From a candidate division WWE3 bacterium UBA1379 (GTDB taxonomy: Bacteria > Patescibacteriota > WWE3 > UBA101185 > UBA10185), in assembly GCA_002305475.1 (NCBI GenBank), contig DBRB01000001.1, positions 1-58,437 of the forward strand: a stretch of DNA of 58,437 bases. The letters run 5' to 3'. Positions 1,324-16,560 of this stretch are shown piece after piece. Each line of letters begins with the position of its first letter. Position 1 is the first letter of the stretch. A program made the position numbers and the translations under genes. The notes below the pieces were generated by a model, which searched no databases, had not been told where the DNA came from, and was given only the letters and a program-made list of their open reading frames with translations.

Positions 1324-2049
1324 ATGAATACATTTCCAAATCCAAAGCAGTATATTGCTAAAGTAATTAATAAAAAATATTTGAACTACAAGACTCTTCA
1401 AGTGGATTTTAAAGTTTTAACGCCAAAAGGTTTTTATTTTGTACCAGGACAATTTATTAATATAAAGGTTACGGACTCTGTATATAGGTCCTATTCAGTA
1501 TGCTCAGATTACAAGAAAAAGGATTTTATCGGGATAATTTTAACTGTTGCTCATAATGGATTAGGTGCAAATTATCTTAAAAACATTTCCGTAGGAAGTG
1601 AAGTAACTATTATTGGTCCGTCCGGTAGATTAGTACTTCCGGATAATCTTGCTAATAATATAAATATTTATGTCACAGGGACTGGGTTAACACCTATGAT
1701 TCCGATACTCATGAGGTTGATAGATATTAAGTGTAAATCAAAAATAAGATTATATTACGGAAACAGGCTATTTGAAGATGCCTTCAAATTGGATTTTCTT
1801 AATGAATGCAAGAAAAAATTATACGATTTTGAATATTATATATATGTATCTCAGCCAACAACGGATTATTCAGGATTACGCGGAAGAATAACTGATAATA
1901 TCGTTTTGGAAGATCCCAAGAATACCCAAGTACTTATCTGTGGTAATCCCATGATGGTGAGCGAAATAATCGAAATATTCAATGAAAGGGGTGTGCCATC
2001 AGAATCAATTATCCATGAGAAATTTGTAACATCGGTAAGAAATGTTTGA
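1324..2049 (+). CDS. FNR-type FAD/NAD(P)-binding oxidoreductase
   Basis: RSYS (RxYS FAD motif), GPSG, VTGTGLTP (NAD-binding) and CGNPMM motifs. Start moved to ATG 1324, which follows AGAGGA. Confidence 0.7.
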   Translation: MNTFPNPKQYIAKVINKKYLNYKTLQVDFKVLTPKGFYFVPGQFINIKVTDSVYRSYSVCSDYKKKDFIGIILTVAHNGLGANYLKNISVGSEVTIIGPSGRLVLPDNLANNINIYVTGTGLTPMIPILMRLIDIKCKSKIRLYYGNRLFEDAFKLDFLNECKKKLYDFEYYIYVSQPTTDYSGLRGRITDNIVLEDPKNTQVLICGNPMMVSEIIEIFNERGVPSESIIHEKFVTSVRNV

Positions 2050-2084
2050 AACGTTAAATTAATAGTTTTTATATTTATAATAAA

Positions 2085-2126
2085 CAAAAAATAAAGGGTC
2101 TTAAATGTGGTATCACAATAAGACCC
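2085..2126 (-). terminator. rho-independent terminator candidate for the 2153-2581 gene
   Basis: Perfect 8-bp stem GGGTCTTA (2096-2103) / TAAGACCC (2119-2126). On the minus strand it is followed by a T-rich run (plus-strand A-run 2085-2095). Confidence 0.5.
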
Positions 2127-2152
2127 ATCTGGAAAGAAATTACCAAAGATAA

Positions 2153-2581
2153 TTAATTATCAACCCACCGGAACCTCTGTAGGTCTTCACCTAAAAGATC
2201 ATAAGGTATTAGGATACCATCTTCGCCTATCGAATATAGTGTACCTTTCTCTGGTGTTGGTTTTTTCGGATCGATGCAAATTGCTTTTCGCGTAATACTA
2301 GGTTCATCTACACTCTCAAATGTTACAATAAGTTCCGAATGTCTTCTCTGCTTTTTTATAACCCGCCAAAGTCCCTGAGTGGAATCAGACAAATCTAACT
2401 CAAAAATCTGATCTACATCAGGTGTCAATAAAAATGTAATATCTGCACTCGGGGATGGAATGAACACCGGTTCATCAGACTCTAGTACCCCGCACATAGA
2501 TGTTGCAATCCCAAGTATGCTTAGGGTTATTACCAAAATAACAGCAGATGTTATTAGTGAGACACGATCAAAACGTTCCAC
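2153..2581 (-). CDS. hypothetical membrane-anchored protein
   Basis: 142-aa ORF with an N-terminal hydrophobic segment. No recognisable motif. Confidence 0.5.
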   Translation of the reverse strand: MERFDRVSLITSAVILVITLSILGIATSMCGVLESDEPVFIPSPSADITFLLTPDVDQIFELDLSDSTQGLWRVIKKQRRHSELIVTFESVDEPSITRKAICIDPKKPTPEKGTLYSIGEDGILIPYDLLGEDLQRFRWVDN

Positions 2582-2674
2582 GGTAATTCTCCTCTCCTTC
2601 TATTCTATAGGCTTAGAAATTATTATATCAGGAATATTTAAAAATATATTAGAAAGAAAACAAGTGTAAATATA

Positions 2675-2750
2675 TGGTGGGGGATATAAGATTCGAACTT
2701 ATGACCCCTCGGATGTAAACCGAGTGCTCTAACCGCTGAGCTAATCCCCC
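2675..2750 (-). tRNA. tRNA-Val (anticodon UAC), CCA encoded
   Basis: Reverse complement is GGGGGATTAGCTCAGCGGTTAGAGCACTCGGTTTACATCCGAG...GTTCGAATCTTATATCCCCCACCA. Anticodon loop TTTACAT. Confidence 0.9.
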
Positions 2751-2788
2751 GCTCTGAATTTGCCCTAACATTATACAATCTGGGATGG

Positions 2789-2825
2789 AAAAAAAGTAGC
2801 CCCTCATAGATAATACTATAAGGGG
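2789..2825 (-). terminator. rho-independent terminator candidate for the 2834-3169 gene
   Basis: On the minus strand, CCCCTTATAG-tattat-CTATGAGGGG forms a 10-bp stem with one U-G wobble that only pairs on this strand. It is followed by CTACTTTTTTT. Confidence 0.6.
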
Positions 2826-2833
2826 TTTTAGCT

Positions 2834-3169
2834 TCATACCTTTTGAGACAAAAATTCAACTATGAACCCGAAAATAGCTATAAGTATAGTTATCATATAA
2901 CGAATTACTATGAAATAGTTAATAAATCCTATTAAAAACCACTGAAAAATCGATTTTTCTGACTGTTTTGAAGTATAAAAGAAACCGACCGTAAATCCAG
3001 CTAATAAATTACATATTACCAATACCGCTGGAATTGTATGCATATATAATAACGGTCTATTTAATATCCATTTATTAACTGCCATGTCTAAAACTATCAC
3101 CAAAACCGTAAAAGCAGACAATCCGTAAATGTATGCATTAATCCTAGTTTGAGAGTACTTAGACTCCAT
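2834..3169 (-). CDS. small multi-pass membrane protein, unknown function
   Basis: Hydrophobic ORF. I prefer the start at ATG 3167-3169 (MESKYS...) because AAGGAGGAG lies just upstream and it avoids overlap with the 3234 gene. The ORF track extends to 3274. Confidence 0.55.
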   Translation of the reverse strand: MESKYSQTRINAYIYGLSAFTVLVIVLDMAVNKWILNRPLLYMHTIPAVLVICNLLAGFTVGFFYTSKQSEKSIFQWFLIGFINYFIVIRYMITILIAIFGFIVEFLSQKV

Positions 3170-3233
3170 TTTCTCCTCCTTTTCATTCATATTCAGTTTT
3201 ACATATCTCTCTGGAGTATTATACCATATAAGC

Positions 3234-4166
3234 ATGAAATTATGGGCTCTTTCTAAAGTATTATATATACTCATAATATTTATCCTGTTAGTAATTGCCT
3301 TAGTATTTTCAAAAGATCTTTTTATATATCATCTAAATAACATTGGTAATAATGGTGATAAATCACAATATTATGAAGAGATTACTCATGAATTGAGTGA
3401 AAACCAAATCAATTATGAAGATATATCGGTTGAACAGCAAACAGATTTTGATGAATTAGTTTCAAATTTACGTAAATATAAGGGACAATACTCACTCTAT
3501 ATTAAAAACCTTGAGGATCATGCTGAGGAGTATAGATATCAGGAAAACAAAAAGTACTATGCAGCCTCTTTATATAAAGTACCGGTAGCGGTATCGATTT
3601 TAAAGGAGATTGACAGGGGAAATATTTCATTGGATACAAAAGTTGAATACAAAAAAGAGGATACAGCTGATGGTACCGGCGTAATTTATCACTCTCCTAC
3701 AGGAACTAAATATTCAGTAGAAAGTATTTTATCTTTTCTATTAAAACAGTCGGATAACACCGGACAAAATATACTAATGCGTTCCTTTTCTAAAACCACT
3801 TCTGAACAGGCATTCTCCTTAGTCAATAGACTGAGTGATTTCCATGCTAAAAATATCACATCGGCAAAGGAATATTCCGATTTTCTTATGACCATTTATG
3901 AGGGTGATTATCTTACGGAAGAATCAAAAGGATATTTGTTTGATTTAATGAGTAATACGTCTTTTGATGATTGGATAGCAGATAAATTTAATAAAGATAT
4001 GATATTTGCTCATAAAATCGGGAGTTGGCCGGGAAGTTTTCATGATTGTGGAATATTATTTTATCCGGATAAAAAATATGTTTTATGCATGATGTCAGAA
4101 AACAGTACACTGGAGGAATTTAAGTTAGTCTCAGAGGACGTAGCAGAATTTATGAATATTTTGTAA
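3234..4166 (+). CDS. class A beta-lactamase-like serine hydrolase, membrane anchored
   Basis: S-x-x-K (SLYK), SDN (KQSDNTG) and a KTG-like HKIGSW motif in the expected order. N-terminal hydrophobic anchor. Confidence 0.65.
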   Translation: MKLWALSKVLYILIIFILLVIALVFSKDLFIYHLNNIGNNGDKSQYYEEITHELSENQINYEDISVEQQTDFDELVSNLRKYKGQYSLYIKNLEDHAEEYRYQENKKYYAASLYKVPVAVSILKEIDRGNISLDTKVEYKKEDTADGTGVIYHSPTGTKYSVESILSFLLKQSDNTGQNILMRSFSKTTSEQAFSLVNRLSDFHAKNITSAKEYSDFLMTIYEGDYLTEESKGYLFDLMSNTSFDDWIADKFNKDMIFAHKIGSWPGSFHDCGILFYPDKKYVLCMMSENSTLEEFKLVSEDVAEFMNIL

Positions 4167-4243
4167 GTTACTCTATAGCTACCGACCCCTCATTAATCAT
4201 TTCATATATCTGACTCTTGACTATTTCTGAATTGGAAACATTT

Positions 4244-4483
4244 CTAATCTCCAATAGCGTTATTTGTTTTTCTAGATGGTGTCCAAAACTTAGTTTTTGG
4301 AGCTAACCTTCTAAGTTCTTCCTCTATCTTTATTAGCTGTCTATTCTCAGCTAACAGCTCTTTATGTATCCTTTCTTTCATCTGTCCAATGTATTTAATC
4401 GGGTCTTCTACATACTCTGATTTTTTAGGTCTTCCGGTACTATTGTTGGCGTAATATTTTGAGTAATCAATTACTATTTTCAC
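4244..4483 (-). CDS. hypothetical protein (coiled-coil-like, basic)
   Basis: 79-aa ORF. Its GTG start overlaps the stop of the upstream ORF (GTGA), which suggests translational coupling. Confidence 0.4.
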   Translation of the reverse strand: MKIVIDYSKYYANNSTGRPKKSEYVEDPIKYIGQMKERIHKELLAENRQLIKIEEELRRLAPKTKFWTPSRKTNNAIGD

Positions 4484-5342: not shown

Positions 5343-5393
5343 TTTGGTGGGACATCTGGGAGGAAGTTGTGAACTATTTTATGTCCCTCCAAG
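5343..5393. repeat. 13-nt imperfect inverted repeat in a divergent intergenic region
   Basis: TTTGGTGGGACAT (5343-5355) versus ATGTCCCTCCAAG (5381-5393), 11/13 complementary, core GGGACAT/ATGTCCC perfect. GC-rich relative to its surroundings. Confidence 0.4.
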
Positions 5394-5431
5394 AGGCCTA
5401 CTACATCCCAAGTTTATCATATAATTAACTT

Positions 5432-6046
5432 ATGCTTATAAATTACCCGGTTGAGGATAGAACAATAAGCCAACATTTTGGCGTTGATAACACAAATGAC
5501 CCCGCTAAGGGGGATTTCTATACTGTATTTGGTAATAAACATCCTGGTGTGGACTTTCCCGTTCAGGAAGGCACCGAGGTTTTCGCTTCATTTCCGGGTA
5601 TTGTCGTAAGAAACGAGTACCACAAAGGGATGGGGAATGTCATAGGTATTAGGAATGGGAATATTGTGGCACTATATGCGCACTTGAGCGAAGCAACGAT
5701 TAAGGCTGGCCAAATAGTAAAAGACAGGGAATTGATTGGGCTATCTGGTGCGACAGGAGATGCCTGTTTAAGCCCGCACCTGCATTTTGAACTGAGAGAT
5801 ATTTCTAAACCGTCTCTAAAAGACATGGTATTTGAACCTATTTTTGGCAAAGAAATTCTGCAATACGCGGACACCTTTATTTATTCAGTAAACAACAAAA
5901 ATACCAAGAAAACATTAGTAAACCTTTCTAAACTGTACTATGGAACGGATTCATATTGGCAAAAGATTAACGAATCTAATGGTTTTGCATATGAAAAAGA
6001 TGAAATATTAAGCGATGGTCTTAGCGTTATTATCCCAAATTATTAG
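5432..6046 (+). CDS. M23 family metallopeptidase (LytM-type) with a LysM-like tail
   Basis: HPGVDF (HxxxD) and PHLHFE (HxH) motifs. The C-terminus resembles LysM (YGTDSYWQKINESNG). Confidence 0.7.
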   Translation: MLINYPVEDRTISQHFGVDNTNDPAKGDFYTVFGNKHPGVDFPVQEGTEVFASFPGIVVRNEYHKGMGNVIGIRNGNIVALYAHLSEATIKAGQIVKDRELIGLSGATGDACLSPHLHFELRDISKPSLKDMVFEPIFGKEILQYADTFIYSVNNKNTKKTLVNLSKLYYGTDSYWQKINESNGFAYEKDEILSDGLSVIIPNY

Positions 6047-6665
6047 CACTCAGCAGGTGATTAAAAAACTCGTAAGTAGGTTTGGAGTTATAAGCATATT
6101 CAAACTTTTCAAAAATACCCTCATCTTGATTAATACCCTTTATTGATTTGAGAAATTCGAGAAATTTATTCTTGCCGAAAGTATCCACCAGCAGCTTAAT
6201 AGCAAAGCCTGCCTCATTATAGTTTCTCTCATCTGTAAGGAATTTGGAAAACGCGTCCGGTACCTTGTATTTATCAAGCTGATCGGCAATAAACAAAGAT
6301 GTACCTTCAGTTAGCCAGTTTGGTTTTGTATGGTAGCAGATACTTCTGTAGAAACAATGACAGAGCTCATGCTTAATAAGTTTTTTAATATCATCTTCGT
6401 TATATTTATGCGTGCTCTCTTGTGCGATGTTGTCGGGGTTTAGGATTATTATTGCGTTTTTCGTCCAAGTCCAGCCTACGGACCAAGCAGGAGTTTCCTT
6501 TTCAAGAAATGAGTCGATAGTTTTTCGGTCATCCACAATGAAGATTTTTGGGGTGTCTTTTGCCCACTTAATATCAAAAAATTCGTTAAGATCTTGCATG
6601 GCCGTTTCATATGCCTCGTTTATTAATGTGTTTTCCTTGGAATGTATGCTGAAGGTTGGTATCAC
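6030..6665 (-). CDS. MA-clan (gluzincin-like) metallopeptidase-like protein
   Basis: HELCH (HExxH) followed 18 residues later by NWLTEG, the spacing seen in Peptidase_MA_2-type proteins. Overlaps the M23 gene end by 17 nt. Confidence 0.5.
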   Translation of the reverse strand: MIPTFSIHSKENTLINEAYETAMQDLNEFFDIKWAKDTPKIFIVDDRKTIDSFLEKETPAWSVGWTWTKNAIIILNPDNIAQESTHKYNEDDIKKLIKHELCHCFYRSICYHTKPNWLTEGTSLFIADQLDKYKVPDAFSKFLTDERNYNEAGFAIKLLVDTFGKNKFLEFLKSIKGINQDEGIFEKFEYAYNSKPTYEFFNHLLSANNLG

Positions 6666-6705
6666 GCAGTAATTATAAACTATTATGACTGAAAATGGAG
6701 GTGTG

Positions 6706-6745
6706 TTGATACTGAGCCATATTATAGGTATTTTGGTGATATAAT
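6706..6745 (+). promoter_or_regulatory. promoter candidates upstream of the small peptide gene
   Basis: TTGATA (6706-6711), 17 nt, TATTTT (6729-6734). An extended -10 TGaTATAAT lies at 6737-6745. Motif match only. Confidence 0.35.
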
Positions 6746-6808
6746 GTGTGCAGGATACAGCATGAGGATGATTCTGCTGTTGACAATCTACAGAAAGGAG
6801 AGTGCGTC

Positions 6809-6943
6809 ATGGCCGGTGAAAACATTCTTAAGGCCGAGATGGAAGCCATCCAAACCCAGACAGAAGCCGATGCCGCCTACAACGTCTACATTGACGATTA
6901 CGGCAATTATGGCAACTGGATGGACTGCAACGACTGGCATTAG
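6809..6943 (+). CDS. 44-aa candidate RiPP precursor peptide (MAGENILKAEMEAIQTQTEADAAYNVYIDDYGNYGNWMDCNDWH)
   Basis: ATG 6809 lies 8 nt after AAAGGAGAG. It is 113 nt upstream of, and on the same strand as, a radical SAM/SPASM gene. Helical acidic N-terminal part; aromatic, Asn/Asp-rich C-terminal part. Confidence 0.7.
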   Translation: MAGENILKAEMEAIQTQTEADAAYNVYIDDYGNYGNWMDCNDWH

Positions 6944-6971
6944 CCTGCTTGCCTGGCGACCATCGATAGAT

Positions 6972-7014
6972 AGAGGGAGGTAGGAAACCTTAAACAAGTA
7001 GCTTACCTTCCTCT
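6972..7014 (+). promoter_or_regulatory. intergenic stem-loop between peptide and maturase genes
   Basis: AGAGGGAGGTA (6972-6982) pairs with TACCTTCCTCT (7004-7014): 11 bp with one G-U that only pairs in a plus-strand RNA. 21-nt loop, no T-run after it. Confidence 0.5.
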
Positions 7015-7056
7015 GTCGTTCAACTCAAACGCTCAGAATCGGAAAAGGAGACAGAC

Positions 7057-7440
7057 ATGAAAGGCAAATTGGTCATCATGAAGCCTGTCTCAATCGCTTG
7101 CAACGGCAAGTGTGACTACTGCTACAATCTCTCCGTGAACTTCCGCACTCGTCGTGCAATTCCAAAGATGAGCGTGGAGACGGTAGAACGTGTAGAGCGT
7201 GGATTAATTGAGATAGGAATGGAACGCATACGACTGGTGTGGCACGGAGGTGAACCGCTCCTAAGAGGACTACCTTTCTATAAGGCAGTAATGGAGCAAC
7301 AGGCTCGGATTCGAGCTGAATACCCCGCCCTACGCCTGGAAAACGGTATGCAATCCAATCTAACCCGTCTCACGCCAGAGTGGTGCGAGTTTCTGAAGGC
7401 GAATCACATCATGGTCGGGAGCAGCCTCGATGGGTGGTAA
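7057..7440 (+). CDS. radical SAM enzyme, N-terminal part (AnSME-like core), ends at an in-frame TAA
   Basis: KPVSIACNGKCDYCY (CX3CX2C), GGEPLL, SSLDG motifs. GGAG lies upstream of ATG 7057. Same frame as 7483-8178. Confidence 0.75.
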   Translation: MKGKLVIMKPVSIACNGKCDYCYNLSVNFRTRRAIPKMSVETVERVERGLIEIGMERIRLVWHGGEPLLRGLPFYKAVMEQQARIRAEYPALRLENGMQSNLTRLTPEWCEFLKANHIMVGSSLDGW

Positions 7441-7482
7441 GAAGTACATGATGCCCACCGCAAATATCCCGACGGCACAGGT

Positions 7483-8178
7483 ATGTTCAACGACGCAATT
7501 CGTGGAATGGAACTGGCGAGTAAGTACGGCATCCTCGGCGGAATCATTGCTGTGGTAACCGACGTTACGGTCATGCAAGACCCCGCCAAGTTCTTCGACT
7601 ACCTGGTTAATGTATGTCCGAGAGCAGAAAATACGCCCTGCTGGGATGTGGGAAGCGATGGAGAAAAGCCCGCTTACACAGTAGAGAGCCAGGCGTTTCT
7701 CGACTTTACTACGGCAATGTTCGACCACTACTGGAAACTCGACGACCCGCAACGCAGGATGCGAATGTTTCACGGATTCATTCAGGGACTCCTGGGTGGC
7801 AAGGAACTTACTTGTTCATTCAAGGGAAACTGTGGTGACTTCCTGTCGGTGGAAGCTGACGGTAGCATCTATCCGTGTGGCAAGTTCTCTGGCGTACCTG
7901 AGTTCTATCTCGGCAATATCAATGAGCAGCCGTTGTCCGAGATTCTGGAAAATCCTGTGTACGAGGCATGGCTCAACCAGCGTTCCTGCATACCTCAGAA
8001 GTGTCAGGGTTGTAAGTTCGCCCAAGCCTGTAACAACGGTTGCACTTATGAGCGGTATCAAGGGAACGGTCAGTTCGCAGAGCTTTCTCCCTACTGCGAT
8101 GTGTGGTACGGTCTTTACGAGCATATCGGTGGTCGCATTACCGAACTTCAGACCGCACTCGAAGCACAGAAAGCCTAA
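7483..8178 (+). CDS. radical SAM enzyme, C-terminal part with SPASM domain (continuation of 7057-7440)
   Basis: CGDFLSVEADGSIYPCGKF and CQGCKFAQACNNGC (CX2CX5CX3C) SPASM signatures. In-frame codons 7441-7482 read EVHDAHRKYPDGTG, the expected DG-x4-HD-x2-R continuation. Confidence 0.75.
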   Translation: MFNDAIRGMELASKYGILGGIIAVVTDVTVMQDPAKFFDYLVNVCPRAENTPCWDVGSDGEKPAYTVESQAFLDFTTAMFDHYWKLDDPQRRMRMFHGFIQGLLGGKELTCSFKGNCGDFLSVEADGSIYPCGKFSGVPEFYLGNINEQPLSEILENPVYEAWLNQRSCIPQKCQGCKFAQACNNGCTYERYQGNGQFAELSPYCDVWYGLYEHIGGRITELQTALEAQKA

Positions 8179-8185
8179 GTTTGAA

Positions 8186-8234
8186 AGAGCCAGGTTTCAA
8201 AAACCTTGAGATCTGGCTCTAGTCTTTAATTTTT
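8186..8234 (+). terminator. terminator-like hairpin at the right edge of the GC-rich island
   Basis: AGAGCCAG (8186-8193) / CTGGCTCT (8213-8220) perfect 8 bp, 19-nt loop, followed by AGTCTTTAATTTTT. Confidence 0.45.
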
Positions 8235-8750
8235 ATGAAAAGAACACTTATCGAACCAACTAAATATATAAAAGAACTAATTAAACGTGAGAATGTAGGC
8301 AAAGGTGTAGTTGATATTTTAAAGTTCCAGAACAGTATTAAACTGGTGGATAAACACGAATTAATAAATAAACTTTTTAACCAGAGAACGGCGGAAGAAA
8401 TTTTAAAAGATGGTTTTGTAACCGGATGCACCGATGATGCCATTGTTTTTTTAGCACTCTTAAAGGCTCTAGGGGTAGAAGCTGTTTATGTTGAATCTCT
8501 CGAAAAAAGCTGGCTGGATGCACCTATGAATGAGCAGATGATTAGAGGACATGCATTTGTAAAAGTGGGAGAATTGTTAATCGACCCGCAACGTAAGGTA
8601 ATATACATAGATCCTAACTGGATAAAGAATCGTTACGTTATCTACGCAGAAGGAACCGAACCGTACGAATTTGGTTTAACAGGCTTCCGTGAGATGGTAC
8701 AAAAATTCATGGATTTCAAAGAATCTTACAAACAAAACAATAACAATTAA
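8235..8750 (+). CDS. transglutaminase-like cysteine peptidase superfamily protein
   Basis: Cys-His-Asp arrangement: GCTDDA ... RGHAFVKV ... LIDP, as in transglutaminase-core proteins. 171 aa. Confidence 0.5.
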   Translation: MKRTLIEPTKYIKELIKRENVGKGVVDILKFQNSIKLVDKHELINKLFNQRTAEEILKDGFVTGCTDDAIVFLALLKALGVEAVYVESLEKSWLDAPMNEQMIRGHAFVKVGELLIDPQRKVIYIDPNWIKNRYVIYAEGTEPYEFGLTGFREMVQKFMDFKESYKQNNNN

Positions 8751-8760
8751 TTATTTCCAG

Positions 8761-9051
8761 TTACATCAAGCCTAATTCACGCAGGAAACTTGGCAGAAAC
8801 ATATTTATAGCTGAAAGCGACATACCAATAATCGAAAGGTTTTTTAGTTTTGAAATCTGTTTAGTATCCAATATAAGTCTGTCTGATTTGGATAAAGCCA
8901 GTACGCAACCAGAATTTATCAATCCTAGCAATGGGCTTATCCAACTAACTAGGCATAAAAATGCCAACACGTTAGCAGTCCTAACGCTTTTTATATATTT
9001 TGAAAGAAATCCGCCTACCTTAATCCAGACGAAGAATAAAACCACTCTCAA
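8761..9051 (-). CDS. doubtful ORF (hydrophobic 96 aa, TTG start, no RBS)
   Basis: Only an alternative start codon, no Shine-Dalgarno, and a plus-strand hairpin plus T-run inside it. May be non-coding. Confidence 0.2.
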   Translation of the reverse strand: MRVVLFFVWIKVGGFLSKYIKSVRTANVLAFLCLVSWISPLLGLINSGCVLALSKSDRLILDTKQISKLKNLSIIGMSLSAINMFLPSFLRELGLM

Positions 9052-9129
9052 AGCAAGTTTGAGTGTTAGTAACTCATTTAGACTGATTAAATACTAAATT
9101 CCAAGTCCAACTAATACAGGAACAATTTT

Positions 9130-9282
9130 AAAAACTGTAGACTTTTTGTTTTCTTGCATGAATGCCTTTCCGGGTTGTCGAAATACAACAAGGGGCAACC
9201 CTCGTCTACAGCCGCTAAGCATTCAACCGCAGGGTTGCCCCTTGTTACGGTTGAATGCACCTTTCGGCTTTTAGCGGCTGTT
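9130..9282. other. GC-rich nested inverted-repeat element (candidate structured RNA switch or recombination site)
   Basis: Perfect helices: 9187-9202/9231-9246 (16 bp), 9208-9218/9271-9281 (11 bp), 9219-9229/9248-9258 (11 bp), 9135-9142/9204-9211 (8 bp). The first crosses the next two, so they are mutually exclusive. Confidence 0.55.
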
Positions 9283-9318
9283 AAATTATGAAATTATTAT
9301 ATCACCGGGGAAGGATAT

Positions 9319-9990
9319 TTAGTTAGATTTGGTGTTGTTAAGCAAAATCTTAACTTCCTTAACTTCGTTTACAACTGTTTTGTTTGATAGTTTTGATTTA
9401 ATAAATCTGGTGCTGTTTTGAACATACGTATTTTTATTATCCGGTGTATTGCTTATAGTTTCTTTTAGAAAAACTACTAGATCGTCGTATAACTTTTTCA
9501 AGTCAATGTAAATTATCAATGGATGCGGCAATTTAACACCACTAACAGATTTAACAGGCACGCCGTATTCTTCTATCTTGTGCGTGTTATGACCAAAGGT
9601 TAAATACCACGTGACTATTTGTAACCCAACCTCTATCTGAGCTGGTTCGTCCCCATGTATTAACGAGTGCCTATAGAGATGCATAAAGATGTTTGGAAAT
9701 GTGATGCCAAGTTTTGATAGTAACCAATCCCTTGAATTGATGCCTTTCTTTTTAGGCAATATTTGTGCAATGTGCTCGATTGTGGGAGTTAATAGCCGGA
9801 TCATGGCAAAATATCCGAACTGGTAATTATTAGCAGCAGCTAGTTGTAAATAGCTTCCGGTGTCTTTCTCCAGTCTTTGTAAAATACCATTCAATTCTTG
9901 TTTCAGGGACTTTTTGTACTTGTAATAAATGATGCCCCGATCCTTCGAACGTTGAAGTTTTCGGTTTTTATATTCCGGATGCCTTGCCAT
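9319..9990 (-). CDS. hypothetical protein with an Rx4H (HEPN-like) motif
   Basis: 223-aa ORF. LYRHSLIHG (R107-H112) fits the HEPN ribonuclease signature R-[NHD]-x3-H. Its start lies 2 nt after the stop of the upstream ATPase remnant. Confidence 0.45.
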   Translation of the reverse strand: MARHPEYKNRKLQRSKDRGIIYYKYKKSLKQELNGILQRLEKDTGSYLQLAAANNYQFGYFAMIRLLTPTIEHIAQILPKKKGINSRDWLLSKLGITFPNIFMHLYRHSLIHGDEPAQIEVGLQIVTWYLTFGHNTHKIEEYGVPVKSVSGVKLPHPLIIYIDLKKLYDDLVVFLKETISNTPDNKNTYVQNSTRFIKSKLSNKTVVNEVKEVKILLNNTKSN

Positions 9991-9992
9991 GG

Positions 9993-10470
9993 TTATTTTG
10001 CTTTCAGGCTGTATTTATATACTCTTTTGTTGAAAGCCTCTTCCCCGCCTTCAAGAATCTCACAAGCATGTTCTCTGATACCACATTTTTCTAAAACGCA
10101 ATCTACCTTAACTGTAGGCTTCGTGTTCTCTAATGATCCTGAACAATAGTCGAAAAGTTGTCCGTTTCTATTCTTTCGATCAGAATCGTGTCGGTTTGCC
10201 ACAATCAGTTGTTCTGCATCGGCGCCTACAACTAAATTGGCATTATGGCTAACCATTATTATTTGTCTTTCTTTTTTCTTTTCCTTTAAAAACGCGACAA
10301 TGCTTTCATAAATTGATCGACTATCCAAATCGTCTTCCGGCTGATCTATTAAAAGAGGCCATGTATCTGTCGATTCATCTCAGAAGTATTAAACCTTGAA
10401 ACTGAACGAGTCGGAATGGAAGAATGCTTTGTCTGTGCAGAAAACGGCGTGTTGAAAAATATCGTTCCTA
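9993..10470 (-). pseudogene. 5'-truncated, frameshifted ABC/SMC-type (RecF/OLD-like) ATPase remnant
   Basis: Only the C-terminal part survives: WPLLIDQPEDDLD (Walker B/D-loop), QIIMVSHNANLV (H-loop), ILEGGEEAF tail. A TGA lies just upstream in frame, and a signature-like FSAQTK is in another frame. It runs up to the tRNA-Phe 3' end. Confidence 0.6.
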
Positions 10471-10472
10471 CA

Positions 10473-10548
10473 TGGTGGAGCAGGTGGGAATCGAACCCAC
10501 ATAGCCGGTTTTTCAGACCGGTGCCGTGACCAACTTGGCTACCGCTCC
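10473..10548 (-). tRNA. tRNA-Phe (anticodon GAA), CCA encoded
   Basis: Reverse complement is GGAGCGGTAGCCAAGTTGGTCACGGCACCGGTCTGAAAAACCGG...GGTTCGATTCCCACCTGCTCCACCA. Anticodon loop CTGAAAA. Confidence 0.85.
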
Positions 10549-10639
10549 ATGCAAGCATACTAATAACGTAGCTATTTTATCAGTTCTTTTAACTTTTTTC
10601 TATGGATAGTATGATAATAGAAATAATTGTTTTAATGAT

Positions 10640-10715
10640 TGGAGCGAGAGACGGGGCTCGAACCCGCGACCTTCTCCATGGCAAGGAGATGCTCTACCAA
10701 TTGAGCTACTCTCGC
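10640..10715 (-). tRNA. tRNA-Gly (anticodon GCC), CCA encoded
   Basis: Reverse complement is GCGAGAGTAGCTCAATTGGTAGAGCATCTCCTTGCCATGGAGA...GGTTCGAGCCCCGTCTCTCGCTCCA. Confidence 0.9.
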
Positions 10716-10747
10716 AAATAGCACAAGTATTTTATCACAAGGAAGGC

Positions 10748-12451
10748 TTACCAGCTACCGCCTCCGCCACCCCCACCTCCTCCGCCGGAAAATCCTCCTC
10801 CGGATGACCCACTTCTGGTAGTGGATATGGAGGAACTGGCTGCCTGCGAAAAACTGTGAGATAAGGCACTAAATGATGAAAAGCTAAATGCCTGTCCACT
10901 TGAGCTTTCATACCATTCTGGTTGCTGGATCTTAATATCTGAAAATCTTTTTATCCAGACATCCTCTACACCGAATGCAGTAGCATAAGGTAAAAGCTTT
11001 TCAAAAAACATCTGATTCTGGGCCTGAAAGTCCAGTTTTTCATCCTGAGAAACCAGAAATTTTTTCAGAGATTTTGCTTCGCCATATTTTTCTATACCCA
11101 GCTGAGTTCTTTTTGCGGTTTGAGATGCCAGGTATGCTGCAATAATCATAAAGATATTCAGTGTAGGAAAAGCTAAACCGAACAGTACCATGAATAATGT
11201 ATGTGTTTTTTGAGGATTTTCTTTAAATAATCCCTTCATAATCAATCCTTGGGTAACTTTTTCCTGAAAAGTAAGTAAGGAAGTACCAAACGCCCTATTT
11301 TTTGAGAGTTCGTTGATACTAACTACATTGTTATTGCTTTTACTATGAATATTTATAAAAAGGTACTCCTCAAAGTTAGATAAGCCTTCCGCACTGTCTT
11401 TTAGAAAATGCAGTTCATAGTCATCTTTACCGAATATCCCTGATTTCGGTTTACTAACAATTTTCCAATACCCCTTTTGGGCCATCTGGATAATTGTTGC
11501 TGTAATATCCTTATGATCTACTGTTTTATCAAGTAATACCGATGTTTCAGCCGGAGACAAAAACTTATTATTCTTATCTTTAGGAGGATCAAACCAGGCA
11601 GCTACTACTCTGGCATTCTGGTTCTCTTTCCTATATGAGATATATCTGGCAATAAATATAATAGGAAGAACTAAATACCATGCAATTGCAGCTAAACCTA
11701 GAAAGATCCACAGTAATATTTGTCCGACTCCCGGTTTTTCCTCCTCCGGCATTAATATCGTCACATTTCCTTTTGGAAAACCTGTGGCGACAGTAAACCC
11801 TTCTCCGGGTCCCAATGGTTTAGTTAATGTGTAAGATACGGTTTTTGTTATCTGGTCATATCTGAACGTACAGGCAGTCTCCTGTGACCCGTAGGCACCC
11901 GTATAGCAGCTGTTTTGAATTTCATCTTCTGTAAAATTATTCGGAAGAATAACCTGAACACTCGATCTTTCTATGGGGATTTCCCAGTCAGTTCCAATAG
12001 CATCCCAGTATATTTCATCATATTCAGCGAAATATCCTAAAGCACCTGATACTTTATACTCTACGTGATAAGTAATATTCCCCGTAACGGTTTTGTTCGG
12101 ATCTCCTATTTTTAGGACAATATCACCATTCTCTTTGCTAACCCGATACTTTATGGATCTTCCTTGCGGATCTGTAACCGAATAATTGCTTAACTTCATG
12201 GCCAGGGTTTTACCGGCTTCATCGTTTAATCTATAGGGAATTTTTCTGAATATTCCATGCCTGTCATCCGGAAAGAAATATTCAATATCTTCCGACACAT
12301 TTATTGTTCCGTCGGTGTTAATCCTAATATCTACATTATATGAATTTATTTTTTCTATTGATGTGTCTAAAGCAAAAACACCGGATGTGTAAAAAATAAA
12401 TAATGGAATGGAAAGAATTACAGAATATAAGAATATTTTAAATGTTTTCAT
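10748..12451 (-). CDS. DUF2207-like membrane protein with a poly-Gly C-terminal tail
   Basis: 567 aa. Signal/anchor, large extracytoplasmic N-domain, several TM segments, and a terminal SGGGFSGGGGGGGGGGSW typical of DUF2207 proteins. Confidence 0.65.
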   Translation of the reverse strand: MKTFKIFLYSVILSIPLFIFYTSGVFALDTSIEKINSYNVDIRINTDGTINVSEDIEYFFPDDRHGIFRKIPYRLNDEAGKTLAMKLSNYSVTDPQGRSIKYRVSKENGDIVLKIGDPNKTVTGNITYHVEYKVSGALGYFAEYDEIYWDAIGTDWEIPIERSSVQVILPNNFTEDEIQNSCYTGAYGSQETACTFRYDQITKTVSYTLTKPLGPGEGFTVATGFPKGNVTILMPEEEKPGVGQILLWIFLGLAAIAWYLVLPIIFIARYISYRKENQNARVVAAWFDPPKDKNNKFLSPAETSVLLDKTVDHKDITATIIQMAQKGYWKIVSKPKSGIFGKDDYELHFLKDSAEGLSNFEEYLFINIHSKSNNNVVSINELSKNRAFGTSLLTFQEKVTQGLIMKGLFKENPQKTHTLFMVLFGLAFPTLNIFMIIAAYLASQTAKRTQLGIEKYGEAKSLKKFLVSQDEKLDFQAQNQMFFEKLLPYATAFGVEDVWIKRFSDIKIQQPEWYESSSGQAFSFSSFSALSHSFSQAASSSISTTRSGSSGGGFSGGGGGGGGGGSW

Positions 12452-12458
12452 TTTTGTA

Positions 12459-12545
12459 TGGTGGGCGAGACAGGACTTGAACCTGCACGGGTTTTACCCC
12501 ACAACGACCTCAACGTTGCGCGTATACCAATTCCGCCACTCGCCC
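12459..12545 (-). tRNA. tRNA-Leu (anticodon GAG), long variable arm, CCA encoded
   Basis: Reverse complement is GGGCGAGTGGCGGAATTGGTATACGCGCAACGTTGAGGTCGTTG + variable arm + GGTTCAAGTCCTGTCTCGCCCACCA. Confidence 0.9.
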
Positions 12546-12605
12546 AAAAAGTCTTTGCAGACAGTATTATACAATAAAAACACTCAAAGGTCAGTCACTG
12601 ATATA

Positions 12606-13550
12606 ATGATAGGTATGAGTCTAAAAGAACAGAATATTTCTCTGGATAACTACACATATCAATATTACAGCAGTACATACAGGGAAAACTTCCCAGTATT
12701 AATCATGCTTCATGGAATTGCCGCTAGTAAAGATTTTATGATGGAATTAGCCAACACTCTTAGTGAAACATATAATTGTTTTCTTCTTGATCTTCCAGGT
12801 CACAATGGTTTAGAACTAAACGGTATTGAAAAGTTTGATGATTTTGCCGAGTATTTAAAGAAATTTATCTCATACATCAACCCGAAGGAGTTTTGCATTT
12901 TAGGATATTCACTTGGCGGTATGATAGCCTTAAAGTATGCTGAAAACTATGCTGACATTGATATGCCAAAATTATCTAAGGTTGTAGTCTGGTCCAGTCC
13001 TGTATTGGGTTTTAATAACGGATTAAGTACCCTTGTTAAAGCATCCCTTCCAATAGTGAACAGCATTCCAAATGATTTATTTGATTCAGTGGCAAAAAAT
13101 AAAAAAATCATTGAATATCTTAATCAGGCACTTAAAATTGCAGGGACGTACGGTCCCGTTCCTGTTGAACCGTTATCTAAATTCAGTCTAGAAAATGCTA
13201 AAAGAATCATCAATATATCTACACTGGTAAACTTTGAAATAAACTTACATACCCCGGTTTTATATATCTTTGATAAATATGATCCGATCGTCCATCCAAA
13301 AAATTACCTGTATGTAAATAATAATCATAACCCTACAACCTCTAAAGTAGTACTAGTTAACCGTGGTGGACATTTTAAAAACAGAAATGGTTTTTCAAGG
13401 GTAAAAGAGGAAATTGGAAAGTTTTTAGAAACTAATAATAAGATATCTGGTGCCGAAGGTGGGACTCGAACCCACACTCCCTTACGGGAACTGCCTCCTG
13501 AAGACAGCGAGTCTGCCAATTCCTCCACTTCGGCTTACGCCCAGAAATAA
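12606..13550 (+). CDS. alpha/beta hydrolase fold protein
   Basis: GYSLGG nucleophile elbow; HG oxyanion region (IMLHGIA). Start set to ATG 12606, downstream of tRNA-Leu(GAG). The last ~34 codons run antisense through tRNA-Leu(CAG). Confidence 0.65.
   Translation: MIGMSLKEQNISLDNYTYQYYSSTYRENFPVLIMLHGIAASKDFMMELANTLSETYNCFLLDLPGHNGLELNGIEKFDDFAEYLKKFISYINPKEFCILGYSLGGMIALKYAENYADIDMPKLSKVVVWSSPVLGFNNGLSTLVKASLPIVNSIPNDLFDSVAKNKKIIEYLNQALKIAGTYGPVPVEPLSKFSLENAKRIINISTLVNFEINLHTPVLYIFDKYDPIVHPKNYLYVNNNHNPTTSKVVLVNRGGHFKNRNGFSRVKEEIGKFLETNNKISGAEGGTRTHTPLRELPPEDSESANSSTSAYAQK
13448..13534 (-). tRNA. tRNA-Leu (anticodon CAG), long variable arm, CCA encoded
   Basis: Reverse complement is GCCGAAGTGGAGGAATTGGCAGACTCGCTGTCTTCAGGAGGCAG + variable arm + GGTTCGAGTCCCACCTTCGGCACCA. 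Confidence 0.9.
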
Positions 13551-13601
13551 TAAGGCTATTTTATCTTTATATCAATACTTTGGCAATTTGGGATAAATAT
13601 G

Positions 13602-14309
13602 CTAAAAGTACTCTCTTATGAAAAGATATCCCAGAGTAGATATACCGTTAATAATGACATGTATGACTATTCCGGGAACAATTGATCCTGTTCTTCGGTA
13701 TAAAAATGCTAACATCAAACTTAGAATTAAGATAGGAATAAAAACTGTCGGAATCTGGTGTAATAATGAGAAAAGTATTGAACTTGAGAGAGCAGCTGTA
13801 ATAAATCCGAATCTATTCCAGAAATAATTTAAAAGAAATCCTCTAAACAATAGTTCTTCCGTTAAAGGAGCTAAGAAAACTACAAAGAATATCAGAAAGG
13901 CATTATTATTTAAACTATCAAACAAAGGGAGTAAATAATTTGATTGATGATAGTCAACAAGGCCTAAAATTAATATTATGACATTATAGAAGATATTGAA
14001 TATATAAAACACACCCAGATAACCAAGTCCATGAAGCATGTCAATAATCTTGATTTTTCTCAGGCCAAGATCCGAAAAAGAGTAATTCTTTGTTCCTAAC
14101 ACAGCAAGTACTATATATATTAAAATAAGCAGATCGAATACGGCAGATAAGATAAAAAGCTGTGTTACCGTAAGATCTACAGGCAGACGGTATTTAATGA
14201 CGGTAATCATTACCATAATAGTTAATAGGAATAGACCTATCGAATTGAATCCCTTGCTAAATATTTTTGGTTTATTTAATTCGAATCTATTATTACTCAT
14301 CTTGAGCAT
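13602..14309 (-). CDS. CPBP family intramembrane glutamic endopeptidase (CAAX protease-like)
   Basis: TEELLFRGFLL, FSLLH and HVIINGI motifs in a polytopic membrane protein. Confidence 0.75.
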   Translation of the reverse strand: MLKMSNNRFELNKPKIFSKGFNSIGLFLLTIMVMITVIKYRLPVDLTVTQLFILSAVFDLLILIYIVLAVLGTKNYSFSDLGLRKIKIIDMLHGLGYLGVFYIFNIFYNVIILILGLVDYHQSNYLLPLFDSLNNNAFLIFFVVFLAPLTEELLFRGFLLNYFWNRFGFITAALSSSILFSLLHQIPTVFIPILILSLMLAFLYRRTGSIVPGIVIHVIINGISTLGYLFIREYF

Positions 14310-14362
14310 AATACACGATAATATTAAGAGTAACTAATTATTATGAGAAAATATTGAAAGAT

Positions 14363-14395
14363 TGGTGGGGGAAACTTTATGACCTCGAATTAAAC
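14363..14395 (-). other. possible degenerate tRNA-Val 3'-half relic
   Basis: TGGTGGGGGA is identical to 2675-2684, followed by ACTTTATGACC-TCGAA versus ACTTATGACCCCTCGGA in tRNA-Val, with the T-arm segment deleted. Confidence 0.3.
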
Positions 14396-14472
14396 ACTTT
14401 TGACGAGTTCCAATGGGTTCTGACTTTTAGTAACTTATACGTTTAGTATTTATTATGAACAGGTAAATTAGA

Positions 14473-14503
14473 GGTCACACTAAGAATATTTTCTTGTGTG
14501 ACC
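14473..14503 (-). terminator. hairpin downstream of the 14525-14713 gene
   Basis: GGTCACAC (14473-14480) / GTGTGACC (14496-14503) perfect 8 bp, 15-nt loop. Only a weak T-rich tail on the minus strand. Confidence 0.35.
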
Positions 14504-14524
14504 TTGGGATAGGGTACTTATACG

Positions 14525-14713
14525 TCACTTTACAACTATGGCGAGATCATATCCTCGTGTTTTAAGATATGCTAGTACTTTGTCGGTGCCTTCCGCTGGT
14601 TCTACCTTTATCTTACCTGATCCAATGTCAACCGGAATAATTTTACAGTTTAGTTCCCTACTCGTTTCACTCATGATCGCTTGGTTGTATGTTCCCCACA
14701 AAACTATAATCAT
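14525..14713 (-). CDS. small hypothetical protein (62 aa)
   Basis: AAAGGAG lies 8 nt upstream of the ATG. Composition is globular, not low-complexity. Confidence 0.5.
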   Translation of the reverse strand: MIIVLWGTYNQAIMSETSRELNCKIIPVDIGSGKIKVEPAEGTDKVLAYLKTRGYDLAIVVK

Positions 14714-14830
14714 TCTACTACTCCTTTTCTTGGAATATGAAGGGGGTTGATAATAAATCTATAGGCCTTGTTGTACTGACAAATGTATTATAGAACAAAA
14801 GGAAAATAACACCTATAGGTTTGTTTATTT

Positions 14831-14905
14831 TGGTGAAGGCGGTGAGATTCGAACTCACGACCAAGGGATTAAGAGTCCCCTGCTCTACCACTGAGCTACG
14901 CCTCC
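14831..14905 (-). tRNA. tRNA-Lys (anticodon CUU), CCA encoded
   Basis: Reverse complement is GGAGGCGTAGCTCAGTGGTAGAGCAGGGGACTCTTAATCCCT...GTTCGAATCTCACCGCCTTCACCA. Confidence 0.9.
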
Positions 14906-14973
14906 AGTATTGTGAAAAGAGCCTGATAACTTTGATATTTTACAACAAAACTGAAATTATTTGAATATACCGC

Positions 14974-15393
14974 TTAAATTAGGCTTTCAATATTACCCAG
15001 AAGGTCAATATAATAAAAATTAATAGGTATCTTTATCTCATATTCATTAAATAGGATATATCTGGCTTTCTGAGCACATTCTTTATGCCGGATGAAGTCT
15101 TCTTGTTTAGAAAGACCATTAGGGATTAAATTGTCGGATGCGTAACCTCCACAATCCTGATGATCGAAAACCAGAATTTCATGGGGAGAATGAAGGTCTA
15201 AAGATATTTTTAGTTGTCTAATTAAGTTTTGTAAATATATCTCATTTTCTGGTTTGACTATATCTCTAAGACTACCTGCTATGCTTATATGATCATATTT
15301 ACCAACATAATTACTAGACTCTAGCCACCTCATTAAAGTGCGTTGAATGCGAAAATCAATACAGGATATTATTAAAGCTTTTGCTTTATGCAT
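14974..15393 (-). CDS. beta-carbonic-anhydrase-like small protein
   Basis: SCIDFR (CxDxR) and HQDCGGY (HxxCG), the zinc-ligand pattern of beta-class carbonic anhydrases. At 139 aa it is shorter than canonical enzymes. Confidence 0.4.
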   Translation of the reverse strand: MHKAKALIISCIDFRIQRTLMRWLESSNYVGKYDHISIAGSLRDIVKPENEIYLQNLIRQLKISLDLHSPHEILVFDHQDCGGYASDNLIPNGLSKQEDFIRHKECAQKARYILFNEYEIKIPINFYYIDLLGNIESLI

Positions 15394-15550
15394 AAATTTA
15401 AAGAATCAAAAACCAATAGTTATAATACCATAGAAATAACTTAATCAAATTAATTACTGTTTCCTTATATAATTATTAACCGATACATGTATGCTAATAT
15501 ACTTTACTGAGAGCTCAATGATTTGATCAGATGATATTTAGGAGGGAATA

Positions 15551-15928
15551 ATGATAATCAGGCTTGCAATTGTAGAAGATGATGAAGCCGTAAGAATTAC
15601 GCATGAGGCATTTTTCTTGTCAGCGATACATGACATCATAGTTACAACATATAAAAACGGGCAGGATCTTATAGATGCATTAAAAAAGGGAGAGTGGTTT
15701 CATGGTGTGTTAATGGACGGGAAGCTTCCTGACGGGGTTACAGGACCGGAATATACCCATATGATTAAGGAGATATACCCTGAGACTATTATCATCGGTT
15801 ATTCTTCAGACATATCGCTCAAAGACTCTTTTCTTGATAAAGGAGCCGATGCATTCTTTCTAAAGATAACATCAATAAAGGAACTGTATGATCTCGCAGA
15901 TAAGATTGAGGGAGTACTTAGGAAGTAA
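15551..15928 (+). CDS. single-domain response regulator (CheY-like receiver)
   Basis: VEDD acidic pocket, phospho-acceptor-like D in VLMDGKLPDG, 125 aa, TAGGAGGG RBS. Confidence 0.7.
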   Translation: MIIRLAIVEDDEAVRITHEAFFLSAIHDIIVTTYKNGQDLIDALKKGEWFHGVLMDGKLPDGVTGPEYTHMIKEIYPETIIIGYSSDISLKDSFLDKGADAFFLKITSIKELYDLADKIEGVLRK

Positions 15929-15937
15929 TGATAATTT

Positions 15938-15980
15938 ACGCTATGAATATCCGGTCACCGATTTCATAGCGTATTTTTAT
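15938..15980 (+). terminator. rho-independent terminator of the response regulator gene
   Basis: ACGCTATGAA (15938-15947) / TTCATAGCGT (15963-15972) perfect 10 bp, followed by ATTTTTATTT. Confidence 0.7.
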
Positions 15981-16058
15981 TTATGGTAGTTGATATCGTG
16001 CTATGATAGTATATTTTGAGTTAGTTACCGTTATTCTGACAGTAATAATGGAGGTGAG

Positions 16059-16366
16059 ATGATAAACAAAAAAGATAAGATTAACAATATTCTGTCATTC
16101 TTTGAAAAGGAAGGTAAAGTTTTACGAAAAGGACCATTCAAAAATGAAAGGAGCTTTTCACAAATTTTTACGGGGTTGGATTATATTTTCTTCCTTAATG
16201 CATAAATAGTATTAACGGATTATTTGAGCAAGAAGGAATATCGGGTTTTCTTGATCTTGCTACTGTTAACTCAGATCTTAACGATAATATAGTGTGTTTC
16301 TATGAGTATAGCGGGGGAATTAAATTAGAAGGCGGAGAATACTTTGTCATGCTTAGAAATGTATAG
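16059..16366 (+). pseudogene. frameshifted small gene (SMI1/KNR4-SUKH-like impression)
   Basis: ORF 16059-16205 (GGAGGTGA RBS; ...GLDYIFFLNA*) continues sensibly in the next frame at 16208-16366 (SINGLFEQEG...FYEYSGGIKLEGGEYFVMLRNV*). Confidence 0.35.
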
Positions 16367-16381
16367 CTTATAAAACACTAA

Positions 16382-16428
16382 AAGCTGTCAGCACATTTGT
16401 TAAAACGCTGGCAGCTTCTTTATTATTA
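16382..16428 (+). terminator. rho-independent terminator candidate
   Basis: AAGCTGTCAGC (16382-16392) / GCTGGCAGCTT (16407-16417), 11 bp with one U-G wobble valid on the plus strand, then CTTTATTATT. Confidence 0.5.
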
Positions 16429-16485
16429 AATCACAGAAAAATTACATATTATTAATAGATTATAGGGTTATTAGTTAATTAAAAA

Positions 16486-16560
16486 TGGCGCGCCTGGAGG
16501 GAATCGAACCCCCACACCTTGTTCCGAAGACAAGTGCCCTATCCTTTAGGCCACAGGCGC
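16486..16560 (-). tRNA. tRNA-Arg (anticodon UCG), CCA encoded
   Basis: Reverse complement is GCGCCTGTGGCCTAAAGGATAGGGCACTTGTCTTCGGAACAAG...GGTTCGATTCCCTCCAGGCGCGCCA. Confidence 0.9.

Follow-up and report, generated by a model that had tools for sequence, protein, structure and literature searches.

What does a gene resembling that of an anaerobic sulfatase maturase (anSME) do in a bacterium of the candidate phyla radiation (CPR; Patescibacteria), a group whose genomes are very small and in which natural-product genes have seldom been recognised? The question is raised by a stretch of 58,437 nucleotides from the candidate division WWE3 bacterium UBA1379 (contig DBRB01000001.1), referred to here in its whole length as the window, in which a radical SAM/SPASM gene broken by an in-frame TAA lies between a short open reading frame (ORF) and a gene for a transglutaminase-like protein. 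The overall reading reached below, which is considered rather probable, is that of an inactivated (Gln128 to TAA), CPR-specific, anSME-like peptide maturase that would work with a precursor peptide and a transglutaminase-like partner and whose product would be a cyclophane.

The nature of the enzyme is readily established. Read through the stop codon, the frame contains KPVSIACNGKCDYCY, a CX3CX2C motif (C15-x3-C19-x2-C22; nt 7099-7122), GGEPLL at codons 64-69 (nt 7246-7263), SSLDGW*EVHDAHR, where the asterisk is the in-frame TAA, and, in the C-terminal half, CGDFLSVEADGSIYPCGKF and CQGCKFAQACNNGC, the SPASM cysteines being found at about 7813-8097. Pfam recognises Radical_SAM (1e-14) and SPASM (2e-10), 65 radical SAM families of NCBIfam are reported at E-values of 0.01 or lower, with sulfatase_rSAM as the best of them (1.7e-68), and a profile of the enzyme family matches anSMEcpe in the PDB at 1e-73. 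The identification is far beyond chance, and the anSME-like radical SAM/SPASM identity and the motifs quoted in the initial annotation of the locus are all read on the plus strand of the gene. Eight cysteines are invariant across the family: C253, C259, C274 and C329 align with anSMEcpe Cys255, 261, 276 and 330, which ligate auxiliary cluster I, and C316, C319, C325 and C347 with Cys317, 320, 326 and 348, which ligate auxiliary cluster II (ligand assignment as in PMC5491770). This bears out the proposal that the cysteines suffice for two auxiliary 4Fe-4S clusters.

A structure predicted with AlphaFold2 (AF2), for which database homologues were used, has a predicted local distance difference test score (pLDDT) of 92 and is closest to anSMEcpe, with template modelling (TM) scores of 0.86-0.90, followed by ChlB (0.84-0.86), while CteB reaches 0.64-0.76. 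The protein is a single domain that aligns over its full length with anSME and ChlB; the alignment with CteB begins only at CteB residue 102, meaning that the enzyme has no N-terminal recognition element (RRE) of the kind known from peptides that are ribosomally synthesised and then modified post-translationally (RiPPs), in line with the initial annotation, which saw no RRE gene within the island. In summary of this likeness, anSMEcpe (PDB 4K36-4K39; TIGR03942) is the best match in sequence (251 bits) as well as in structure, and the two enzymes share their length, the position of CX3CX2C from residue 15, the missing RRE and the eight SPASM cysteines for two fully ligated auxiliary clusters.

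The differences from anSMEcpe are equally clear. The sulfatase maturase model TIGR03942 is matched by 20 of the 20 family members (best E-value 1.2e-84), but the window enzyme receives 231.4 bits from it, the cut-off being 349.45, and is in fact under the cut-off of each of the 65 NCBIfam families reported. Moreover, in all family members covering these positions, anSME Tyr24 is replaced by Asn (N24) and Asp277 by Gly-Lys (G275-K276); the anSME numbers come from the family-profile alignment to anSMEcpe and not from the study in which an Asp and a Tyr of anSME contact the substrate thiol (Cys/Ser) (PMC13638132). The aligned anSME-like outgroups, which include three annotated anSME, retain both Tyr and Asp, with the exceptions of P0026 and P0036. 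Within the 58-kb window there is no ORF with the sulfatase motif C/S-x-P/A-x-R, and the gene is paired with that of a small peptide instead of a sulfatase. Judged by these residues and this pairing, the function is almost certainly not that of anSME, and the sequence evidence supports a peptide maturase rather than a sulfatase maturase. The initial annotation had asked whether the top-scoring family might be a true sulfatase maturase with no peptide association among relatives; the top model is under its cut-off, and a precursor gene stands upstream in the relatives. As automated annotation confuses peptide maturases with true sulfatase maturases, a sequence rule is proposed to separate them, namely that the residues equivalent to Tyr24 and Asp277 are lost and that a peptide is encoded upstream.

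The precursor is conserved: wherever sequence upstream of the enzyme gene is available (the window, L001-L007, L087-L091 and L008), a same-strand ORF of 43-59 aa precedes it by 80-215 nt. A profile search gathered 19 precursor clusters, all alike in the pattern of leader and core, the leader following the consensus M-x-G-E/Q-x-I-L-x-A-E-L/M-E-x-I/V and the core of the main clade Y-x-V-Y-V/I-D/N-D/E-Y-G/P/A-N-Y-G-N/D-W/F-x-D/N-C-x-x-W/Y-H, followed by the stop. In the window precursor, which has no Pfam or NCBIfam match and is identical in L001 and L002, the leader corresponds roughly to residues 1-22, and the core runs Y27-I-D, Y31-G-N, Y34-G-N and W37-M-D before ending with C40-N-D-W-H. All 17 main-clade precursors have the core Cys, flanked by Asp/Asn, as well as the C-terminal [WY]-H. 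In the most divergent precursors (L089, L090 and L008) the Cys and the terminal His are both gone, and the Tyr-x-Asp/Asn repeats are retained; aromatic-x-Asp/Asn repeats are thus the sole core feature surviving in them, and the corresponding enzymes keep all the family active-site residues.

Between precursor and enzyme genes, a stem of 12-16 bp occupies the same spacer position in six of the six loci folded (the window and five others), in each case formed from unrelated sequence. It clearly beats shuffled sequences in five of the six, with z-scores of -2.4 to -4.2 in four loci besides the window and of only -0.76 in L091. This stem-loop is likely an attenuator or an mRNA-stabilising hairpin, an arrangement that would be expected if the precursor transcript were kept in excess over that of the enzyme.

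In the protein encoded by the third member of the set, comparison of 24 homologues shows C65 and H106 to be invariant and D117 to reach a conservation of at least 90%. Transglut_core (PF01841) is over the Pfam cut-off in the L005 homologue and sub-threshold in the window protein. Among PDB entries, the AF2 model (pLDDT 95) comes closest to 3ISR, a putative Cys protease, and next to the pseudomurein endoisopeptidases PeiP/PeiW, with modest TM scores of about 0.5. The protein therefore shows the hallmark of the superfamily, a Cys-His-Asp triad on a transglutaminase core fold. Its gene is directly downstream of the radical SAM gene in seven of seven main-clade loci, and in the saccharibacterial L008 it stands on the upstream side of the peptide-enzyme pair, in divergent orientation. 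The sequence divergence of the transglutaminase-like protein and that of the radical SAM enzyme are correlated (r = 0.82). The statement of the initial annotation that the maturase is the only tailoring gene and that no leader peptidase is present becomes doubtful, given that this gene is kept with the pair in all loci and rearranged in L008; it was probably overlooked because it falls outside the GC-rich stretch. The protein is a candidate for removing the leader or for a second tailoring step, put at slightly less than an even chance.

Table 1. Positions of the cassette, of its signals and adjacent genes in the window, and of gene remnants in other loci.
Feature	Sequence	Position	Strand	Description
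HExxH (HELCH) MA-clan-like metallopeptidase gene	window	6030..6665	-	Peptidase_MA_2 2e-6, below cut-off
Precursor peptide gene	window	6809..6943	+	44 aa, MAGENILKAEMEAIQTQTEADAAYNVYIDDYGNYGNWMDCNDWH; AAGGAG ribosome-binding site 8 nt upstream; homologues in 19 clusters
Spacer stem-loop between precursor and enzyme genes	window	6969..7017	+	16-bp stem; RNA fold -36.4 kcal/mol, z = -3.1
Radical SAM/SPASM peptide maturase gene	window	7057..8178	+	373 codons, broken by nonsense codon
In-frame TAA	window	7438..7440	+	codon 128, CAA (Gln) to TAA; from comparison with L001, L002 and P0001
Terminator-like hairpin	window	8186..8220	+	15-bp stem, between the radical SAM and transglutaminase-like genes
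Transglutaminase-like Cys-His-Asp enzyme gene	window	8235..8750	+	171 aa (C65, H106, D117); conserved directly 3' of the radical SAM gene
Small membrane-protein gene	window	8761..9159	-	132 aa in L001; Y22* (TAC to TAG) at 9094-9096 in the window
Radical SAM 3' remnant	L093	3751-3951		GC-rich, no precursor remaining
Radical SAM 3' remnant	L096	3670-3941		GC-rich, no precursor remaining

In the window itself, however, the enzyme is interrupted. Under translation table 11 the gene is read as two ORFs of 127 and 231 aa. The contigs L001 and L002 match window positions 5345-10502 and 5345-9257, respectively, ungapped and at 99.7% identity, and both have CAA (Gln) at codon 128, as does P0001, an unbroken protein of 373 aa that is 99% identical to the window enzyme and was found on these two JGI contigs in a search of 5.8 billion proteins; elsewhere in the family the position is occupied by Q, E, A, R, K or P. 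TAA is, in addition, the commonest stop in the window, ending 30 of the 47 long ORFs. Since near-identical contigs have CAA and TAA is the commonest real stop, the window copy is a nonsense allele and not a recoded gene: recoding is ruled out, and the codon, which the initial annotation had translated as X, is better described as a nonsense mutation of CAA. A functional split enzyme made of the two ORFs is also unlikely, because the 14 codons that separate them hold the invariant H131, R135, G140 and G142; furthermore, M143 has no preceding ribosome-binding site. Truncation after 127 residues removes half of the barrel and the whole SPASM domain. From its sequence, this copy is probably a recent pseudogene and dead, and the precursor peptide is most likely not modified in this genome.

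It may be objected that the gene is intact in the organism, the TAA being read through or being a sequencing, assembly or minor-variant artefact. A single base separates TAA from the CAA of the 99.7%-identical contigs, and minority alleles can enter metagenome consensus sequences. Yet the same copy differs from L001/L002 at five sites, of which two are synonymous, one is the nonsense change and two are the non-synonymous S185N and I192N, both at family-conserved positions. These five are among the 13 single-nucleotide polymorphisms (SNPs) of the 5.2-kb block common to the window and L001, and two of the 13 are nonsense, the second being Y22* in the neighbouring small membrane-protein gene, which is present only in the closest relatives. 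Reading through, for its part, is opposed by the exclusion of recoding, and the radical SAM gene is clearly lost in other lineages. An intact gene is accordingly regarded as unlikely.

In L093-L095 and in L096 only the last 67-88 codons of the radical SAM gene are left, upstream of intact transglutaminase-like homologues. L093-L095 include a protein labelled Brennerbacteria and L096 is from a Patescibacteria genome, with IS630/rve transposase genes just upstream of the remnant. Because the window nonsense allele adds to these two sets of 3' remnants, three independent inactivations are apparent from the sequences, which suggests a dispensable module with fast turnover. The precursor and radical SAM genes also stand out in composition, as the GC-rich island described in the initial annotation rightly implied: their GC content is about 0.51 versus about 0.35 in the flanks, and their GC content at third codon positions (GC3) is 0.5-0.8, as against 0.25-0.45 in all the neighbours, the transglutaminase-like gene included. 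Of the seven main-clade loci for which GC3 was measured, five show this contrast. It was noted for window 6809-8178, L003, L005, L087 and L092, and still holds where family members share no more than about 46% of their protein sequence. No target-site duplications or inverted repeats were found around the GC-rich pair. Recent independent horizontal transfer of the pair was considered and is a poor fit, given the co-varying divergence of the radical SAM and transglutaminase-like proteins; the transglutaminase-like gene looks co-inherited with the pair despite the GC3 difference.

As to the ends of the block shared with L001, the left one is at 5345, with unrelated L001 sequence beyond it, and the right one lies inside a tRNA-Phe gene (10473-10548, minus strand), after which L001 differs and is partly tRNA-like. 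The block ends may represent recombination or an island boundary; no integrase was seen.

Which reaction would the intact enzyme catalyse? The ranking of NCBIfam scores was used as a proxy for phylogenetic placement among characterised enzymes. Nearest among the peptide-modifying models, none of them at its cut-off, are those of the cyclophane-forming DynA (189 bits; cut-off 450), DarW (144; 650), FxsB (131; 370) and YhhB (128; 445), which are followed by GrrM/OscB (125; 310), DarE (124), PapB (108; 340), QhpD (81; 453), XyeB (80; 450) and the SCIFF maturase (71; 425). DarE, whose closest resemblance by sequence is to anSME, nevertheless forms cyclophanes (PMC10288494). DynA (NF041298), DarW (NF041300) and DarE (NF038005) share with the window enzyme an anSME-like, RRE-less architecture and precursors with a C-terminal aromatic-rich core. 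They differ in that the window enzyme stays far from the cut-offs of 450-650, that its hosts are CPR and theirs Proteobacteria, that the window core is Tyr-rich and acidic, and that no transporter gene is present near the cassette. In dynobactin, a three-residue C-C ring spans Trp-x-Asn, alongside a link through His.

In triceptides, by definition, the aromatic ring of an aromatic-x-x motif is linked to a C-beta; such motifs can start with Tyr, as in the native YDR of ChlB (PMC11499958). The triceptide synthases (ChlB, PDB 9GM3; YhhB; XyeB; GrrM/OscB; FxsB) resemble the present system in their aromatic-x-x core motifs and in having no RRE; ChlB, moreover, has been solved with its leader peptide and, besides its Tyr-based motif, has the similar fold mentioned above. 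The differences lie in the scores under all cut-offs, in the full eight-Cys SPASM domain, in Asp/Asn as the third position of the motif and in the transglutaminase-like partner. The aromatic-x-x motifs in the core of an adjacent precursor are what is expected of cyclophane maturases, and the repeats are kept across the 19 precursor clusters. Within CPR, other anSME-like loci adjoin peptides with W-D-K, W-x-D/N or H-x-D/N repeats. The marks of ranthipeptide, sactipeptide and QhpD systems (a hidden Markov model score over the cut-off, an N-terminal RRE and a conserved Cys-rich core) are absent here. Since the nearest models are cyclophane formers and the core repeats are of the aromatic-x-Asp/Asn type, crosslinking to cyclophanes comes out as the likeliest chemistry, and the formation of three-residue cyclophanes on Tyr/Trp-x-Asp/Asn motifs is favoured by analogy, as something about which one may be right or wrong in equal measure.

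In a mechanism modelled on the triceptide and daropeptide/dynobactin enzymes, the cluster held by C15, C19 and C22 would cleave SAM, and the resulting 5'-deoxyadenosyl radical would take a C-beta hydrogen from the Asp or Asn of each aromatic-x-Asp/Asn motif. The carbon radical would then attack the Tyr or Trp ring two residues upstream, with the electron leaving via the two fully Cys-ligated auxiliary clusters. The product would carry up to four three-residue cyclophane rings and possibly one more link involving Cys40 or His44, and the transglutaminase-like enzyme would probably trim the leader as the last step. Far more tentatively, and with the balance of expectation against it, the family could stand for a new type of polycyclic peptide, in which contiguous cyclophanes between Tyr/Trp and the C-beta of Asp/Asn are combined with a C-terminal Cys/His link and transglutaminase-like finishing, confined to CPR, whose lineages would have acquired it time and again, maintained it with a foreign codon composition and lost it. 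If this were true, the peptide could be a CPR-specific factor for interaction with hosts or competitors.

Several points weigh against reading the locus as a dead cyclophane maturase with a processing partner. An error of assembly or consensus calling could account for the nonsense codon, and the crosslink chemistry is argued from analogy. The top HMM match and the best structural match are both anSME, and the Asp that follows the auxiliary-I Cys is kept in some CPR radical SAM enzymes clearly paired with peptides. It is because these retain the Asp that the residue is a one-way marker, its absence being informative and its presence not. The invariant Cys beside Asp/Asn in the main-clade precursors would suit a thioether as well. 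The window enzyme keeps a full eight-Cys SPASM domain, which is mostly lost in ChlB, and for this reason it is not a typical triceptide synthase. Finally, the transglutaminase-like gene is intact where the radical SAM gene has been deleted, and the terminator-like hairpin parts the two genes, comparable inverted repeats being read by eye after the radical SAM stop in the remnant loci L093 and L096; because of this survival and this separation, the transglutaminase-like gene may have a role independent of the maturase.

Among the alternative chemistries, the one that fares best, while still improbable, is that the enzyme performs some other radical SAM reaction on the peptide, be it C-O or C-N crosslinking (the ether of DarE or the His-N to C-beta link of dynobactin), epimerisation, or oxidative C-terminal processing to a cofactor-like product. 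DynA and DarE/DarW, which make ether and N-C links besides C-C ones, are among the closest models, and the invariant C-terminal [WY]-H of the main clade could be a substrate for such links; nothing points specifically in this direction, however, and divergent precursors no longer have this His.

Less likely again is a thioether-forming maturase of the ranthipeptide or sactipeptide type, in whose product C40 would be bonded to a carbon atom of an aromatic or Asp/Asn residue close by; the initial annotation had called the enzyme AnSME/QhpD-like and assigned it to a clade that includes thioether formers. Like QhpD, CteB, PapB and the SCIFF maturase, the window enzyme is a SPASM radical SAM enzyme acting, as proposed, on a peptide; the two-auxiliary-cluster SPASM domain is common to thioether enzymes, the PapB, CteB and QhpD models are matched significantly, and the main-clade cores have their single Asp/Asn-flanked Cys. 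This Cys, however, is not family-wide, being missing from the L089, L090 and L008 precursors although their enzymes keep the family active-site residues, and one Cys does not explain four conserved aromatic-x-Asp/Asn motifs. The thioether families, at 71-108 bits, are well under the cyclophane-forming ones, and the enzyme lacks the RRE found in CteB. Its SPASM domain has eight cysteines instead of seven, the eighth corresponding to anSME Cys261, of which QhpD, AlbA, MftC and the KW cyclase have no equivalent (PMC5491770). The placement in a QhpD-like or thioether clade is therefore not supported. Last, a bona fide anaerobic sulfatase maturase, making formylglycine on a sulfatase encoded elsewhere, is hardly credible, since its support from the top NCBIfam and PDB matches and the eight SPASM cysteines is countered by 231 versus 349 bits, the substituted Tyr24/Asp277 pair, the window free of sulfatase-motif ORFs and the conserved upstream precursor.

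The enzymes form a family of about 20 clusters (P0001-P0020) sharing 43-99% identity, the next matches being anSME-like and at most 33% identical. Among 1.84 billion cluster representatives (clustering at 50% identity), the core family amounts to two clusters at about 675 bits, followed by a gap down to about 385 bits and then by an anSME-like continuum. The named members P0014 and L007 belong to candidate division WWE3, and related loci occur in Saccharibacteria (L008, whose enzyme is 34% identical) and 'Patescibacteria group' genomes, besides the remnant next to a Brennerbacteria-labelled protein. No source assigns a functional name to any member, and full-text literature searches (WWE3 with radical SAM; core motif strings) returned nothing relevant. 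This is thus a rare, undescribed, CPR-restricted family of anSME-like peptide maturases. The conserved set of peptide, radical SAM enzyme and transglutaminase-like protein in several CPR lineages offers a compact target for expression, for which P0001 with the precursor P0097 is the intact allele; the family is a lead for genome mining, the gene in the window itself being probably dead.

A wider anSME-like set (P0142-P0147, P0154, L008, L009, L027 and L074) has YPCG[KR] where anSME has YPCD. It extends beyond CPR to sequences of Anaerolineales, Nanoarchaeia and Aenigmatarchaeota, and no peptide was found near L009, L027 and L074. Separately, nine CPR loci with anSME-like radical SAM genes that are 27-31% identical (L011, L013, L017, L022, L026, L029, L035, L040 and L048) have short repeat peptides alongside, with W-D-K (...PWDKAWDKGPWDKGHWANRK), W-x-D/N, H-x-D/N or Cys-rich CDCDDCDPC repeats, and look like further unannotated RiPP families.

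Around the cassette, the HExxH peptidase gene was considered as a possible member, but it is conserved at the same position only in L003 and not in L005, L087 or L088, so that the link is weak. Beyond the small membrane-protein gene, a 223-aa ORF (9319-9990, minus strand) has no family match, and a 111-aa ORF (9993-10328, minus strand), which matches SMC_N weakly, looks like no more than the C-terminus of an SMC/ABC-type ATPase, so that the gene may be truncated. Next on the minus strand, within 6 kb (10473-16560), come six tRNA genes (Phe, Gly, Leu-GAG, Leu-CAG, Lys and Arg); the long ORF at 12408-13550, which runs on the opposite strand, shares positions with both tRNA-Leu genes and is for this reason probably spurious in part. 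In L005, a trio of radical SAM, Memo and AMMECR1 genes (1873-4257), which we take to be the AmmeMemoRadiSam arrangement, is located 4 kb upstream of the cassette and appears unrelated to it.

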